In this document: piece after piece, positions 10,388 through 17,234 of the stretch
How the letters are laid out: each line of letters begins with the position of its first letter
Numbering within the stretch: the stretch's first letter is position 1
Origin: an uncultured Armatimonadia bacterium
GTDB lineage: Bacteria; Armatimonadota; Zipacnadia; Zipacnadales; UBA5352
Direction: 5' to 3'
DNA: 64,000 nt
Assembly (NCBI GenBank): GCA_964617715.1
Contig: CAZTZN010000002.1
Span: 23,441-87,440 of the forward strand
Translations under genes and position numbers: made by a program
The notes under the pieces: model-generated
What the model saw: the letters and a program-made list of their open reading frames with translations, nothing else
Told to the model about the DNA's origin: nothing
Database searches by the model: none

Positions 10388-12844
10388 ATGCGGCGATTGC
10401 CGATGCCACGAGAGCTGACTCCGGACGAATGCCGATGGCGTTGCGACGCAGACCTGTTCGAGTTCGCGACCACCGCCGAACTGCCCGAGCAGGTCGAGCC
10501 GATCGGGCAGGACCGGGCAACCCGGGCGTTGACCTTCGGCGCCTCGATCCGGAGCGAGGGCTACAACATCTTCGTGCTCGGTCAGCCGGGCAGCGGGCGC
10601 CATACGCTGGTGCTCGACGCGCTGCGTCGCCGGGCGGCCGAACTGCCGGTGCCCAGCGACTGGTGCTACGTGCACAACTTCGACGAGCCCCGCCGCCCGC
10701 GGGCGCTGGAGCTGCCGGCGGGGCGGGCGATGGAGTTCCGCGATGACATGAAGGAGCTGATCGAGGACGTGGATCGCGAGATCACGCGCGCCTTCGAGAG
10801 CGACGACTACTCGAGTCGGCGCGACGAGGTGGTGCGCGAGTTCCGCGAGCGGCGCAACGCCCAATTGCAGGAGCTGGAGCGCGAGATCCAGGAGGCCGGA
10901 CTGGCGATCGGCCGCGGGCCGGCGGGGCTGATCGTCGCTCCCGCACGCGACGGCGAGGTGCTCAACCCCCAGGAGTACCAGCAGCTTCCGCCCGAGGAGC
11001 GCGAGCAGATCGACCGGCGACGGCACGAGCTGCAGGAGAAACTCGACGACGTGATGCGGCGCGGCCAGCGCATCGAGAAGGAGGCGCGCCGACGTGTGGC
11101 CGAGCTGGACCGCGAGGTCGCGCAGTTCGCCGTGGGCGGACTGTTCGATGACATCCGCGCTCAGTATGAGGGCCTCGAGCAGGTGCTCGACTACCTGGAG
11201 CAGGTGCGCGAAGACATCGTTGACAACCAGGGGATCTTCCGAGCCGAACACAGTGACGAGGGAGCCCCCGAGGGCGCGCCCGCTCCACTGCCCGCGCTGG
11301 GCGCGCCCCATGCGCCGCAGGGGCCGTACAATCGCTACGCCGTGAACGTGCTGATCAGTCACAGCGGCGATGATGGGGCCCCGGTCGTCTTCGAGAGCAA
11401 GCCGACCATCGAGAACCTGACCGGCGACATCGAACATGTCTCGTACATGGGCGCGCTGCTCACCGACTTCACCATGATCAAGGAGGGCGCGCTGCACCGC
11501 GCCAACGGCGGCTACCTGGTGGTGGACGCGCTGGCCATCCTCACCCGGCCCTTCGCGTGGGAAGCGCTCAAGCGCGCACTTCAGGAGCAGAAGGTCTGCC
11601 CTGAGTCGGTGCGCGAGCACCTGCGATTGATCTCAACGGTGTCACTTGAACCTGAGCCGATCCCGCTTGAGGTCAAGGTGGCGCTGGTCGGCACACCGAT
11701 CGTCTACTACCTCCTGTACGCTCACGACGAGGAGTTCCGCAAACTCTTCAAGGTCAAGGCCGACTTCAACCTGCAGATGGACCGGACCGACCATGCGGCG
11801 CGGCGGTACGCAGAGTTCATCGCGGCCTGTTGCCACCGCGAGAGTCTGCCCCACTTCGCGCCCGATGCGGTCGCTCTGGTGGCCGAGGAGGGCGCGCGTC
11901 TCGCCGGCGACCAGGGCAAGCTGTCCACGCTCTTTATCGACGTGGCCGACCTGGTGCGCGAGGCCGCGTACTGGGCGCAACGCGGCGGGCAGTCGGTGGT
12001 GCGCGCCGCCCACGTCCGCCAGGCGGTGGACGAGGGGGTCTTCCGCGCCAACCGCATCGAACAGCGGATGCTGGAGCTGATCGAGCAGGGCACGCTCATG
12101 GTGGACGTGGCAGGAACGGCGGTGGGCCAGGTCAACGGCGTGGCCGTGCTGCCGATGGGAGACTATGCCTTCGGCAAGCCCACGCGCATCACCGCACGCA
12201 GCTTCCTGGGCAAGCCCGGCGTGATCAGCATTGACCGTGAGGCCGAGATGGCCGGACCAATCCACAACAAGGCCAGCTTGATCCTGGGCGGCTATCTGGG
12301 CGAGAAGTTCGCCGTGGACCAGCCGCTCAGCGCCGCGGTGACGCTCGCCTTCGAGCAGGTCTACGAAGAGGTCGAGGGCGACAGCGCGGCGGCGGCAGAA
12401 CTCTATGCCCTGCTCTCCAGCCTCGGCGAGGTGCCTCTGCGCCAGGATCTGGCGGTGACCGGCTCGGTCAACCAGCACGGACAGATCCAGGCGGTGGGCG
12501 GCATCAATCAGAAGATCGAGGGCTTCTTCCGCGTCTGCCGTCTGCTGGGGCTGACCGGCACTCAGGGGGTCATCATCCCCGCCGCCAACGTGCGCCACCT
12601 CATGCTGCGCGAGGAGGTGCTGAGGGCGATGGCCGACGGTCAGTTCCACATCTACGCGGCCGAGACGGTGGATGAGGCCGTGGAGTTGCTCACAGGCATG
12701 CCGCTGGGCGAGCGCGACGCGCAGGGCCGCTTCGCTGAGGGCACTCTCGCCGCACGGGTCGCGCAACGCCTGGAGGCGATGGCCGAGGCGCACCGACGCT
12801 ACGATGGCGGCGATAACAACCGGGAGGACACGAAGAGCCGGTAA
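10388..12844 (+). CDS. Lon protease homolog of the YcbZ/LonC type: degenerate AAA-like domain plus S16 Ser-Lys protease domain
   Basis: The C-terminal half aligns closely by eye with E. coli YcbZ (FEQVYEEVEGDSAAAAELYALLS...VGGINQKIEGFF...GVIIPAANVRHLML). The P-loop-like segment GQPGSGRHT has Arg in place of the Walker A lysine. The Walker B region YLVVDALAI lacks the Glu. The alternative start ATG 10403 has better SD spacing. Confidence 0.75.
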   Translation: MRRLPMPRELTPDECRWRCDADLFEFATTAELPEQVEPIGQDRATRALTFGASIRSEGYNIFVLGQPGSGRHTLVLDALRRRAAELPVPSDWCYVHNFDEPRRPRALELPAGRAMEFRDDMKELIEDVDREITRAFESDDYSSRRDEVVREFRERRNAQLQELEREIQEAGLAIGRGPAGLIVAPARDGEVLNPQEYQQLPPEEREQIDRRRHELQEKLDDVMRRGQRIEKEARRRVAELDREVAQFAVGGLFDDIRAQYEGLEQVLDYLEQVREDIVDNQGIFRAEHSDEGAPEGAPAPLPALGAPHAPQGPYNRYAVNVLISHSGDDGAPVVFESKPTIENLTGDIEHVSYMGALLTDFTMIKEGALHRANGGYLVVDALAILTRPFAWEALKRALQEQKVCPESVREHLRLISTVSLEPEPIPLEVKVALVGTPIVYYLLYAHDEEFRKLFKVKADFNLQMDRTDHAARRYAEFIAACCHRESLPHFAPDAVALVAEEGARLAGDQGKLSTLFIDVADLVREAAYWAQRGGQSVVRAAHVRQAVDEGVFRANRIEQRMLELIEQGTLMVDVAGTAVGQVNGVAVLPMGDYAFGKPTRITARSFLGKPGVISIDREAEMAGPIHNKASLILGGYLGEKFAVDQPLSAAVTLAFEQVYEEVEGDSAAAAELYALLSSLGEVPLRQDLAVTGSVNQHGQIQAVGGINQKIEGFFRVCRLLGLTGTQGVIIPAANVRHLMLREEVLRAMADGQFHIYAAETVDEAVELLTGMPLGERDAQGRFAEGTLAARVAQRLEAMAEAHRRYDGGDNNREDTKSR

Positions 12845-13108
12845 CGAGGCGAAAAGTCAGGGGCCGACGGGCAGTCCCGGGGGGGGAGGACATTCCGCCG
12901 GCCCGTGCCTCACGCAGCATAGCCGCGCGAGGAAACCTTTGTCTCGCCCCGCATTATACCACATTTCGGATTGTTACCAACCTCTTAAGGCAAAAAACTC
13001 GGCCAGGAATCTCTACCGAAGGTCACCTGCCGACGCGAGCCCCCACTGCTTCATCGCAAAAAGCCGCACCTGGGCGTGCAGGCGGCCACGAATCGGGCAC
13101 TGCACCCC

Positions 13109-13137
13109 TTGCAATGTGCCGGGGCTTGCGCTATAAT
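13109..13137 (+). promoter_or_regulatory. Near-consensus sigma70 promoter TTGCAA-N17-TATAAT for the rimP-nusA-infB operon
   Basis: TTGCAA at 13109-13114, a 17-nt spacer and TATAAT at 13132-13137, about 115 nt upstream of the rimP ATG. Confidence 0.55.
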
Positions 13138-13173
13138 ACTCAGCGACGAAACCACATCTCAGGGATTCTTTCT

Positions 13174-13209
13174 GGGAGTGGGCCGCGCGGCCCACTCCCT
13201 TCGTTTTCC
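13174..13209 (+). terminator. Leader hairpin GGGAGTGGGCC-GCGC-GGCCCACTCCC followed by an interrupted U tract (UUCGUUUUCC): candidate attenuator/NusA-dependent terminator
   Basis: Perfect 11-bp stem read directly from the sequence, about 35 nt downstream of the predicted TSS. A second hairpin CCGCGACCT-GTTCA-AGGTCGCGG sits at 13208-13230. Confidence 0.45.
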
Positions 13210-13249
13210 GCGACCTGTTCAAGGTCGCGGCGAGAGCGCCGGTGCGGAC

Positions 13250-13735
13250 ATGAGGATCAGAAAGCATCCGGTTGTGCGCAAGATCGAGGCCGAAGTTGAG
13301 CGCCTGCTTGCGGACTTCGGGTACGAACTGGTTCAACTCAAGTACGGAGGTGCGAGCAGCGGGCGGTCGCTGACGGTACTGTTGGACCGCCCGGAGGGCG
13401 TTACGGCCCAGGACTGCTCAGAGATGAGCCGAAGGCTGTCGATGCTGCTGGATACACTGGACCCGATCCCGAGTTCCTACACACTGATCGTGTCATCGCC
13501 GGGGCTGGACCGCCCGCTCACGCGCGATGGGGACTTTCAGCGCTTCGCGGGGGAACTCGCGGCTGTGCGGCACGTGGCGGCGGACGGATCGCGGCGCACC
13601 GACAGGGGCGTGCTGCAGGGGCTCAAGGACGACCAGGTGGTTATGCAAGTCAATGGCGATACCGTACACATCCCGCTTGCCGAGGTCGAGGAGGCGAACC
13701 TGGTCTACGACTGGGACGCTCACGACGGGCGCTGA
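13250..13735 (+). CDS. rimP: Ribosome maturation factor RimP
   Basis: ATG at 13250 inside track ORF 13076..13735. The translation is RimP-like and the gene sits directly upstream of nusA-infB, the conserved synteny. Confidence 0.75.
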
Positions 13736-13787: not shown

Positions 13788-15053
13788 ATGAACGGCGAGT
13801 TTCTGGACGCGCTTGAGCAGCTTCAGCGCGAGAAGGACATCCCGATGACTGCCCTCATAGAGACGGTGGAGGCCGCAATGGCCTCGGCCTACCGCAAGCA
13901 CTATGGGGTCAACGACGATGTGCGGCTCGAGATCGACTTCGAGAAGCGCACGGTCCGCATGATCGCCCGCACGCTGGTGGACGATGAGGCCATCGACGAC
14001 GGCCAGGGCGTTGACCAGACGGCAAGTGTCAAGACCGAGGAGCACGAGGTGGACGCCGCGGACTTCGGTCGCATTGCTGCGCAGACCGCCAAGCAGGTGG
14101 TCATGCAGCGCGTGCGCGAGGCCGAACGCGAGATCGTGTTCGACGAGTTCAGCCATCGCGTGGGCGAGATGATCACCGGCGAAGTGCAGCGCAAGGATGC
14201 CCGCAACGCGTACATCGCGGTCGGGCGTACCGAGGCGCTGCTGCCCGCCAACGAGCAGATCCCGGGCGAGACCTTCCGTTTTGGCGACCGACTCAAGCTC
14301 TACGTTCTCGACGTGCGCAAGACCACACGCAACCCGCAGATCATCCTGTCGCGCCGCCACCCCGGGCTGGTGGTCCGACTCTTTGAGCAGGAAGTGCCCG
14401 AGGTCTTCGACGGCGTGGTCGAGATCAAGTCGGTGGCGCGCGAGGCCGGGGCACGCTCGAAGGTCGCCGTCATGTCGCGCGATCCGCAGATAGATCCGGT
14501 GGGCGCGTGCGTCGGGCACCGGGGCGCGCGGGTGCAGTCGATCGTTGATGAGTTGCGCGGCGAGAAGATCGACATCGTGCGCTACTCCGACGATCCCGCT
14601 GAGTACCTCAGGAGTTCGTTGTCGCCGGCCAAGGTCTCGCAGGTGGTCCTCAACGAGGAGGACCGCTCGGCCGTAGTGGTGGCTCCCGACGACCAGCTCT
14701 CGCTCGCCATCGGCCGGCGCGGGCAGAATGTGCGACTCGCGGCCCAACTGACCGGGTGGCGCATCGACATCCAGAGCCAGACTCAGTGGGCGACCCAGGC
14801 CGAACGCGCGGCCGAAGAGCAGGCGAAGGCGATCGCGGCCGAAGCCAAGCGAGTGCGTGTCTACGAGCTGGCCAAGGAGCTTGACGTGCCCAGCCCTGAG
14901 TTGGTAGAAATCATGAAGGAAGAGGGCATGGATGTGACCAGCCATGCCAGCTCGGTAACTGCCGAGGAGGCGGACATTATCCGCGACCTGCTCCTCGGTG
15001 GCGAGGGCACACTCGACGACATTGAACTCGGCAACATCGAGATTGAGCTGTAA
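13788..15053 (+). CDS. nusA: Transcription termination/antitermination factor NusA with an unusual C-terminal IF2_N-like domain
   Basis: N-terminal domain, S1, KH1 and KH2 (ends LTGWRIDIQ) are recognisable. The roughly 75-aa tail [41 protein letters not shown] resembles the IF2 N-terminal domain. Confidence 0.9.
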
Positions 15054-17234
15054 ATGAGGCGGGACGGGGTGCCCGAACCCGACCCGCACAGCAGCAATCA
15101 GGCGAAGGCTGTGCCGGAGGTGTACGTATTGGCTGACCAGGTCCGAATCTTCCAACTCGCGAGGAAGCTTGGACTGCGCAGCGAGGCTCTGCTGAAGGTT
15201 CTCGGAGACCTCGGACTTGAGGACGTAAGCGCGGCCTCGAGCATTGACATGGAGACCGCCCGCGCGGCCGCCGAGATTCTGGCGGAGCAGGCGCGGGAGG
15301 CCCGCAAGCGTGCTGAGGAGGAGGCCGCCCGTGAGGCCGCGGCTGCTGAGGCCGCAGCCCGCGCGGCCGCGGCCGCCGCCGAGGAGGCCGCAGAGGCCGC
15401 AGAGGCCGCTCAAGAAGAGACCGCACCGGCCGGGGAGGAAGTTGTGGTGGCGGGGGAGGAGGTCGCCGAAGCCGGGGAGGGAGAGACAGAGGTCGGCGCG
15501 GAGGCGGTGGAAGAGGCCGACGAGGAGGAGGCGCCCCAGCGCTGGGTGCCGGCATGGGCGGCACCGGAAAGCCTGCGCAGTCTCGAAGAGCAGCTCGCGG
15601 AACTCGAGATTGAGGAGGAGGAAGAGGAGGAAGAGTGGTCGGTCGCCCTGCCCGAGGAAGCGCGACGGCCCTCCGGCGATCGCCCCGAGCACGCAATCGA
15701 CGTGCCGCCGGTCGTCGCCGTGCTCGGCCATGTTGATCACGGCAAGACCACTCTGCTCGATGCCCTGCGCGAGACCGACGTGGTCTCGACTGAAGCAGGC
15801 GGCATTACGCAGCACATCGGGGCCTCCGAGATTCAGCTTCCTGACGGCAACACCATCGTCTTCGTGGACACCCCGGGCCACGCCGCGTTCACCGCGATGC
15901 GGGCGCGCGGCGGCCAGGTGGCGGACATCGTCGTGCTCGTGGTGGCGGCGGACGACGGCGTCATGCCGCAGACCGCCGAGGCGATCGGTCACGCGCGGGC
16001 TGCCGGCGTACCCATCATTGTGGCCATCAACAAGATGGACATGCCCGGCGCCGACGCCGCCCGAACCAAGCAGCAACTGCTGGAACACGAGCTGGTCGCC
16101 GAGGACTTCGGCGGCGATACCATCATGGTCCCGGTTTCGGCGCTGGCGAAAGAGGGCCTGGATGAGCTGCTTGAGATGATCATGTTGCTGGCTGAAGTGC
16201 AGGAGTTGTGGGCCGACCCCGAGGCGCCGTTCACCGGTGTGGTGGTGGAGGCAGGCCGAGATGACAGTCGGGGTCCGGTGGCCACGATCCTGGTGCGCAA
16301 CGGCGAGATCAAGGTCGGTGACGTGGTCGTCTGCGGCAGCGCGTATGGGCGAGTGCGGCGGCTCAACGACTGGCGCGGCAAGTCGGTCAAGCGCATGGGG
16401 CCCGGCCACCCGGTCGAGGTCATCGGGCTGTCCGAGGTGCCCGATGCCGGGGAGATCATGACCGTGGCTGAGAACATCAAGGTGGCCCGCGAGATTACCA
16501 CCGAGCGTGAGCAGCAGATGCGCGCCGCCGGCCTGGAGGGTAGTGGCCGCGCGTCCCTCAAGGACCTCTATCGCGAGCTGGGTGAGCTGACGATCAAGGA
16601 TCTCAATCTCGTGGTCAAGGCCGATGTGTCCGGCTCGGTGCAGGTGCTCGAAAGCCAACTGCGAGCCCTGGACCGGCAGCTCGAAGAGGTGGATATCAAT
16701 ATCATCCACTCGGGCGTGGGCGAGGTCAATGAGTCGGACGTGCTGTTGGCGGTCGCCTCCAACGCCATTATCCTGGGCTTCCACGTGGGCGTGACCGAGG
16801 CCGCCGAACGCACCGCCGAGGCCGAGCACGTCGAGATCCGCACCTACGACATCATCTACGAGGCCCTCGACGACATCCAGCGGGCCATGCTGGGGATGCT
16901 CGAGCCGATCTACGAGGAGCAGCTCATCGGGCGCGCCCGCGTGCTGCAGATCTTCCGCATCTCGCGCGTGGGGGTCGTGGCCGGCTGCGTCATCACGGAC
17001 GGCTACGCCCAGCGCGGCGCCAAGATGGTGGTGACGCGCGGGCGCGATGAGGTGGTGTTCGAGGGCACACTCGACTCGCTCCGGCGCTTCGATAATGAGG
17101 CCCGGCAGGTGGAGGCCCCGAACGAATGCGGCATCTCCACCCCCGACTTCCGCGGCTGGGAAGAGGACGACCGGATCGAGTTCTTCGCCCAGGTCGAGGT
17201 GCCGCGCCCCACAACCTTCAAGAGCACGCGCTGA
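15054..17234 (+). CDS. infB: Translation initiation factor IF-2
   Basis: The ATG abuts the nusA stop (TAAATG). It has an IF2_N-like N-terminus ([29 protein letters not shown]), acidic/Ala-rich low complexity, a G domain ([25 protein letters not shown]) and a C-terminal beta-barrel. Alternative GTG starts lie at 15111 and 15120. Confidence 0.9.

Follow-up and report, generated by a model that had tools for sequence, protein, structure and literature searches.

The rimP-leader was described by Naville and Gautheret (2010, Genome Biol 11:R97; PMC2965389) as the most ubiquitous bacterial transcription attenuator, found ahead of the rimP-nusA-infB operon in most bacteria. In their account, a short terminator occupies the 5' UTR of this operon, with a G-rich 5' arm and a C-rich 3' arm; the stem carries an unusually conserved GGGc(...)gCCC motif that is followed by a U stretch, and the element is located 4-130 nt from the gene (PMC2965389). 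Its authors saw no accompanying antiterminator in most species and proposed that NusA is the factor recognising it, with RimP as an alternative (PMC2965389). The supplementary lists of that paper include members with a longer core (GGAGTGGGCAAAAACCCACTCTTT in Clostridium novyi, GAGAGTGGGCCCGAAAGGACCCGCTCTTTTTT in Bradyrhizobium and AAGAGTGGGCATATACCCGCTCTTTT in Staphylococcus) and many members with interrupted U-rich tails, such as TTTTTTGTTT. Similar sequences are given there for Clostridia, Bacilli, Alphaproteobacteria, Cyanobacteria and others, and the E. coli member is presented as a GGGC...GCCC hairpin followed by Ts (PMC2965389). Armatimonadota are absent from the 2010 members in parts 1-2 of 4 of these lists.

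In Bacillus subtilis, NusA-stimulated termination in the nusA (ylxS/rimP) leader is reported to autoregulate NusA (Mondal et al. 2016, as cited in PMC12288461), a precedent on which the initial annotation of the present locus had drawn. The NusA-dependent terminators of that organism are described as a class in which the hairpin is weak or the U tract is interrupted at its far end, and termination at sites whose U tract is interrupted is stimulated there by NusG as well. In E. coli, the terminators t1 and t2 were mapped ahead of rimP, and NusA controls the operon that encodes it. Antitermination mediated by Csp proteins was proposed for this operon as well, but northern analysis gave no support for it.

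We analyzed the leader of a rimP-nusA-infB operon in a 64,000-nt stretch of DNA (the window) from an uncultured Armatimonadia bacterium. Judged by its sequence features, the leader element is a new example of the known rimP-leader family. We consider it probable that the region is a 5' leader with an intrinsic terminator of the rimP-leader type, with feedback by NusA as the most likely form of control and with a small upstream helix, P1, as a candidate antiterminator. The initial annotation had read the leader as an attenuator; it missed both the named family and the upstream competing helix.

Organization of the operon and its leader

The genes and leader elements are listed below in window coordinates.

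10388-12844: LonC-like protease (Pfam), the gene upstream of the leader
13109..13137, + strand: sigma-70-type promoter, with -35 element TTGCAA (13109-13114), 17-bp spacer and -10 element TATAAT (13132-13137)
13158..13176, + strand: P1, a small upstream helix and candidate antiterminator, in which CUCAGG (13158-13163) pairs with UCUGGG (13171-13176)
13174..13199, + strand: P2, putative terminator hairpin of the rimP-leader, GGGAGUGGGCC-GCGC-GGCCCACUCCC, 11 bp, found by direct reading, scan and covariance model
13200..13207, + strand: interrupted U tract UUCGUUUU, found by direct reading and terminator scan, the expected release site
13208..13230, + strand: P3, a second hairpin, CCGCGACCU-GUUCA-AGGUCGCGG, 9 bp, found by direct reading immediately 3' of the U tract
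13250..13735, + strand: rimP, first gene of the operon (Pfam RimP_N and RimP C-terminal domain)
13788..15053, + strand: nusA, encoding the presumed effector of the attenuator (Pfam NusA_N, S1, KH_5 and a C-terminal IF2_N)
15054..17234, + strand: infB, encoding IF2 (Pfam GTP_EFTU, IF-2 and IF2_N)

Downstream of IF2 are, in order, RbfA, a DHH phosphoesterase and TruB (all by Pfam). The rimP ATG is at 13250, not 13251, and the RimP length of 161 aa is also found in most of the closest homologues. Where proteobacterial NusA has C-terminal repeats, the predicted NusA of the window has an IF2_N domain (PF04760; residues 355-400). This terminal domain was also seen in the NusA of seven Armatimonadota relatives (L128, L131, L134, L137, L139, L141 and L144; individual loci are given by L numbers), and IF2_N also begins IF2, the product of the gene next to nusA.

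The promoter was evident both by direct reading and in a consensus scan, with 10 of 12 positions matching the consensus and a spacer whose 3' end is CTTGCGC. Three promoter-like sites were found between 12000 and 14500, against 0.2 expected from shuffled sequences. Transcription is predicted to start at about 13144-13145. The predicted transcript contains no start codon with a usable Shine-Dalgarno sequence 5' of 13250; the sole in-frame GUG upstream of this position, at 13178, is inside the P2 stem. Folding of the leader (13144-13265) gave -57.1 kcal/mol, more stable than shuffled sequences (z = -3.7). The layout that the initial annotation had drawn is thereby borne out: its TTGCAA-N17-TATAAT promoter is at 13109-13137, the strong hairpin placed some 35 nt beyond it has 11 perfect pairs and begins 36 nt after the -10 element, the second 9-bp hairpin ahead of rimP is at 13208-13230, and the leader appears noncoding.

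At gathering thresholds no Rfam 15 family matched anywhere in the window, nor did any match 18 other rimP loci. When the segment 12800-13400 was compared with Rfam at E <= 10, only unrelated families were found, at chance level, with no tRNA match, and ARAGORN detected no tRNA or tmRNA in the whole window. Membership of any Rfam model is therefore unsupported. Rfam reportedly holds a 'rimP' leader motif of Firmicutes, said to come from Weinberg et al. 2010; it resembles the present element in being an RNA motif of the rimP 5' UTR, but differs in that no Rfam match was obtained here.

The putative terminator hairpin and its U tract

P2 compares closely with the published rimP-leaders. It occupies the same 5' UTR location, at 13174-13199 between the promoter and rimP of a rimP-nusA-infB operon, and has the same bias toward G in the 5' arm and C in the 3' arm. 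The family core GGGc...gCCC is present as GGGCC...GGCCC (core GAGUGGGCC...GGCCCACUC), UUCGUUUU follows directly as the U stretch, and the distance from the stem end at 13199 to the rimP ATG at 13250 is 50 nt, inside the 4-130 nt of the family. P2 also includes the longer signature GAGUGGGc...gCCCACUC; GAGUGGG...CCCACUC occurs as well in many published members, for example in Clostridia, Bradyrhizobium and Staphylococcus. The present element differs from the published description in its longer stem (11 bp, GGGAGUGGGCC), in the second hairpin that follows the U tract, and in P1, which overlaps the stem base in this lineage, whereas Naville and Gautheret saw no antiterminator in most species.

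The arms of P2, GGGAGUGGGCC at 13174-13184 and GGCCCACUCCC at 13189-13199, enclose the loop GCGC; 9 of the 11 pairs are G-C, and the hairpin energy is -24.6 kcal/mol. The hairpin sequence is present in a single copy in the window, where none is expected by chance. Within the full tail UUCGUUUUCC (13200-13209), the U tract UUCGUUUU has 6 U in 8 positions and passes the terminator scan despite its interruption, which is close to the stem (UUCG, positions 3-4). The initial annotation had taken this for a weak, interrupted tract of the NusA-stimulated type. The interruption itself was confirmed; it is near the stem, whereas the B. subtilis class is described with interruptions at the far end of the tract or with weak hairpins, and the hairpin here is strong. 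With a very stable hairpin on the one hand and a U tract interrupted at positions 3-4 on the other, termination efficiency is not predictable.

Hairpins resembling P3 in form, although unrelated in sequence, were seen by eye at or near the end of the U tract in L001, L002, L003/L118, L095, L137 and L141, where they could not be aligned; by the same inspection, none was present in the short leaders of L114, L126, L128, L131, L143 and L144.

Sites consisting of a hairpin and a U tract are no more frequent in positions 1-60000 of the window (6, 7 and 7) than expected from shuffled sequence (5.8, 5.4 and 6.9, respectively). This frequency suggests that canonical intrinsic terminators are seldom used at the ends of genes in this organism. 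Of all terminator-like stems in the 60 kb scanned, that of the leader hairpin is the longest.

Two further pairings of the tail were considered and set aside. In a minimum free energy fold, the first codons of rimP paired with UUCUUUCUG and the U tract, an arrangement that by eye did not seem conserved among relatives. Such folds also suggested a long-range helix in which GACGAA, at the transcript's 5' end, pairs with UUCGUU of the U tract, with apparent compensatory changes. However, cognate and non-cognate combinations of 5' ends and tails pair equally (means of -2.86 and -2.87 kcal/mol, permutation p = 0.50), and this helix was rejected on that ground.

Conservation in Armatimonadota and in other phyla

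The comparison set comprised 25 leaders from genomes and metagenomes of Armatimonadota (class Zipacnadia, "WS1"), with RimP identity down to 38-57%. It was assembled by several routes. A genome scan with NusA yielded only three close relatives, two metagenome-assembled "candidate division WS1" genomes and one Candidatus Zipacnadia; all three have the same promoter and hairpin 5' of rimP, whereas the other intergenic DNA has diverged. A metagenome scan with an exact 20-nt hairpin pattern gave 47 stretches, 12 of which lie directly upstream of rimP-nusA, 3 of these with a RimP 38-52% identical to that of the window. The remaining 35 are unrelated hairpins without the flanking motifs, about the number expected by chance in a collection of this size. 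Together with the single copy in the window, they led us to reject the idea that the hairpin is a dispersed repeat or the element of a regulon. By an unbiased route, in which contigs encoding RimP homologues of 47-57% identity were fetched, nine more distinct leaders with the element were obtained (L128, L131, L134, L137, L139, L141, L143, L144 and L146).

Promoter and first hairpin are found at the same position in all 25 related leaders recovered. In the 22 leaders with enough upstream sequence, the promoter invariably reads TTGCnn-17-TATA[AC]T, and the hairpin starts 27-39 nt after the -10 element in 21 of them and 76 nt after it in one. The gene upstream varies: LonC-like in the window, it is CN_hydrolase, flavin reductase, TPR or another in the relatives, often on the opposite strand. 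The element therefore belongs to rimP. The core GAGUGGG...CCCACUC is invariant in the 25 relatives. Across these leaders, 98.2% of alignment cells are paired in P2, compared with 47-59% when the partner is slid; five pairs are invariant, and at the two apical pairs both sides change (CG to UA or GC) with pairing kept, in 12 cells. A U-rich tail interrupted by G or C follows in every one of the 25 leaders, mostly as UUUGUUUU in the relatives. With a covariance model built from the 25 leaders, the segment 13144-13215 scored 72.7 bits and the relatives scored 35-77 bits. The attenuator reading of the initial annotation is strengthened by these data, as promoter, hairpin and U-rich tail are fixed upstream of rimP in every relative examined, whatever the upstream gene, and the hairpin carries the published family signature.

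Two more distant loci, L142 and L147, in which RimP is 47% identical, each have a different terminator-like hairpin in this position, directly before rimP. The hairpin of L142 (1440-1500), AAGUGGGCC-GUU-GGCCCAUUUUUUAUUUG, fits the rimP-leader family signature; that of L147 (930-1000) is GAGCGGGUCGAACUUUUCGUCCGCUC, followed by nine U residues. In L146, about ten tandem copies of the 12-nt unit GGTTCCACCCAG are present in the rimP 5' UTR at about 860-1000, between the attenuator and the start codon.

Of 74 loci from other phyla, 56 have the signature shortly before rimP, where its density is about 69 times that in the rest of these loci. The covariance model derived from the Armatimonadota leaders gave only weak matches at the right position in Firmicutes (E 0.002-0.9); for detection across phyla, the regular-expression test of the signature was more informative than the model. 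The near-invariant sequence of the stem points to sequence-specific recognition by some factor.

P1, a helix competing with the terminator stem

The general pattern of P1 in this lineage is CYCAG(G) paired with (C)CUGGG, upstream of P2. P2 begins with the three G residues that end this second arm (13174-13176), which makes P1 and the full terminator stem mutually exclusive. Across the 25 leaders, 86.8% of the cells of P1 are paired. Most substitutions affect a single side and leave pairing possible; in one pair, both sides differ. Because the 3' arm is shared with the invariant P2 and cannot vary, the support for P1 is conserved complementarity, not strong covariation.

Complementarity to the stem base in the upstream 25 nt exceeds that of shuffled sequences in Armatimonadota (mean z = -1.87, negative in 16 of 17), whereas it is not enriched in 54 leaders of other phyla (mean z = -0.19). 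An antiterminator as a feature of the whole family was rejected on the latter result. In 15 of 23 leaders, the structure with P1 and an 8-bp P2 differs from the full P2 by no more than 2 kcal/mol; in the window, the balance is about 4 kcal/mol in favour of the full terminator, and in the subclade to which the window belongs it is 4-5 kcal/mol. From these comparisons, P1 is a candidate antiterminator particular to the Armatimonadota lineage.

Other features upstream of the leader

On the - strand, divergent from the rimP promoter, there is a candidate small RNA of about 95 nt (window 12852-12980). A promoter-like site, TTGGTA-16-(TG)TGGTATAAT, runs from 12980 to 12953. It is followed by two conserved hairpins: hairpin 1 is CCUCGCGCGGC-UAU-GCUGCGUGAGG, and hairpin 2 is a long stem, GGGCCGGCGG...CCGUCGGCCC, around the invariant C-rich loop GUCCUCCCCCCCCGGGAC, in which CCUCC resembles the anti-Shine-Dalgarno sequence. 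After these comes a short U run, which ends 8 nt from the lonC stop codon. Six distinct related loci (L091 being a duplicate of L001) match this region with 76-92% identity, and three pairs show compensatory changes. The candidate had no Rfam match. Between its promoter and that of rimP, the - strand also has a small hairpin resembling a terminator at 13064-13084, in which CGGCTTTTTG comes after CGCCTGCACGCCCAGGTG; a blastn match to the close relative L099 spans this region.

Proposed mechanism and alternative explanations

The mechanism has been shown by experiment in B. subtilis, whereas here we infer termination, its dependence on NusA and the role of P1. Transcription would start at about 13144-13145, and P2 could form after some 55-65 nt had been made, beside UUCGUUUU. 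A fraction of polymerases would then release the transcript in the U tract, and RimP, NusA and IF2 would be expressed from read-through transcripts only; no second promoter was seen in 13200-13250, so the operon presumably depends on read-through. If E. coli and B. subtilis are a guide, NusA itself is the likeliest signal. As more of it bound the elongating polymerase, the hairpin would be completed more readily and pausing at the imperfect U tract would be promoted; the increased termination would lower nusA mRNA and so close a negative feedback. P1 would form first and hold the three G residues of the P2 base. With P1 in place, the hairpin would stop 3 nt short of the U tract and less termination would be expected, so that P1 may set or modulate read-through. 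Repair of the U tract to UUUUUUUU is predicted to abolish the regulation.

The locus resembles the B. subtilis nusA leader in operon, position and presumed logic, and U tracts are interrupted in both; it differs in that the hairpin is much more G+C-rich and stable and the U interruption is near the stem. The resemblance to the E. coli metY-rimP-nusA-infB operon lies in the placement of terminators 5' of rimP and in the presumed regulation by NusA. The metY tRNA gene, the tandem terminators, the RNase III sites and the several promoters of that operon were not seen here.

The same attenuator might respond to an effector other than NusA, such as RimP, IF2, hairpin-melting cold-shock (Csp) RNA chaperones or NusG. 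The invariance of the stem core across phyla suggests sequence-specific recognition, RimP was the alternative candidate named by Naville and Gautheret (PMC2965389), and there are precedents in the Csp-mediated antitermination put forward for the E. coli operon and in the stimulation of interrupted-U-tract terminators by NusG in B. subtilis. Nevertheless, genetics and biochemistry in E. coli and B. subtilis point to NusA, and northern analysis left the Csp model of E. coli unsupported; we regard a different effector as unlikely. It is decidedly improbable that P2 is a constitutive structural element without regulated termination, acting in 5'-end protection of the mRNA, pausing or folding, with the U-rich tail incidental. 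Such a role would suit a very stable hairpin near the predicted 5' end with a second hairpin directly after it, a U tract as poor as UUCGUUUU, and a genome region where canonical terminators are not enriched. Against it stand a U-rich tail that follows the stem in 25 of 25 leaders and throughout the published family, the premature termination reported at the equivalent B. subtilis element, and the mapping of t1 and t2 in E. coli; moreover, a protective structure would have to be closed by pairing of the 5' end with the U tract, and this pairing lacks conservation.

Strong promoter, terminator and invariant core together could also describe a separate small-RNA gene of about 60 nt acting in trans, in the position that metY occupies in E. 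coli. There is little to recommend this reading: no second promoter for rimP is visible in 13200-13250, there is neither a tRNA nor an Rfam match, the element occurs once and never apart from rimP, and a function in trans would supplement attenuation, not replace it. Finally, P2 might terminate transcription of the upstream LonC-like gene or an antisense transcript. That gene ends at 12844, and no other strong terminator-like site follows it on the + strand. Yet the hairpin is 330 nt past the stop codon and downstream of a conserved promoter, the element is unchanged in relatives that have a different and often opposite-strand upstream gene, and on the - strand no U tract follows the stem. Such a role is barely credible, and as a LonC terminator it is essentially excluded by the comparative sequence data.

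Implications

A rimP-leader terminator under NusA feedback thus is the reading that we prefer for this locus, and as such the element is expected and introduces no new principle. The sole modest novelty is the upstream competing helix in Armatimonadota, and P1 provides a concrete hypothesis for mutagenesis. It is conceivable, though we hold this only tentatively, that the rimP-leader of Armatimonadota gained a built-in switch, in which P1 (CYCAG/CUGGG) and the terminator compete for three G residues of the stem base, the two folds being nearly equal in energy in most relatives, and NusA on the polymerase or another protein that reads the GAGUGGG arm chooses between read-through and termination by tipping the 3-bp branch migration. 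If true, this lineage would be a simple model in which to test how the bacterial attenuator of widest occurrence senses its signal. The present locus extends the rimP-leader, the control element for a ribosome-maturation factor, NusA and IF2, to a phylum that has received little study and is largely uncultivated, and the occurrence of the same stem core in Armatimonadota strengthens the view that this sequence may be read specifically by a conserved factor.
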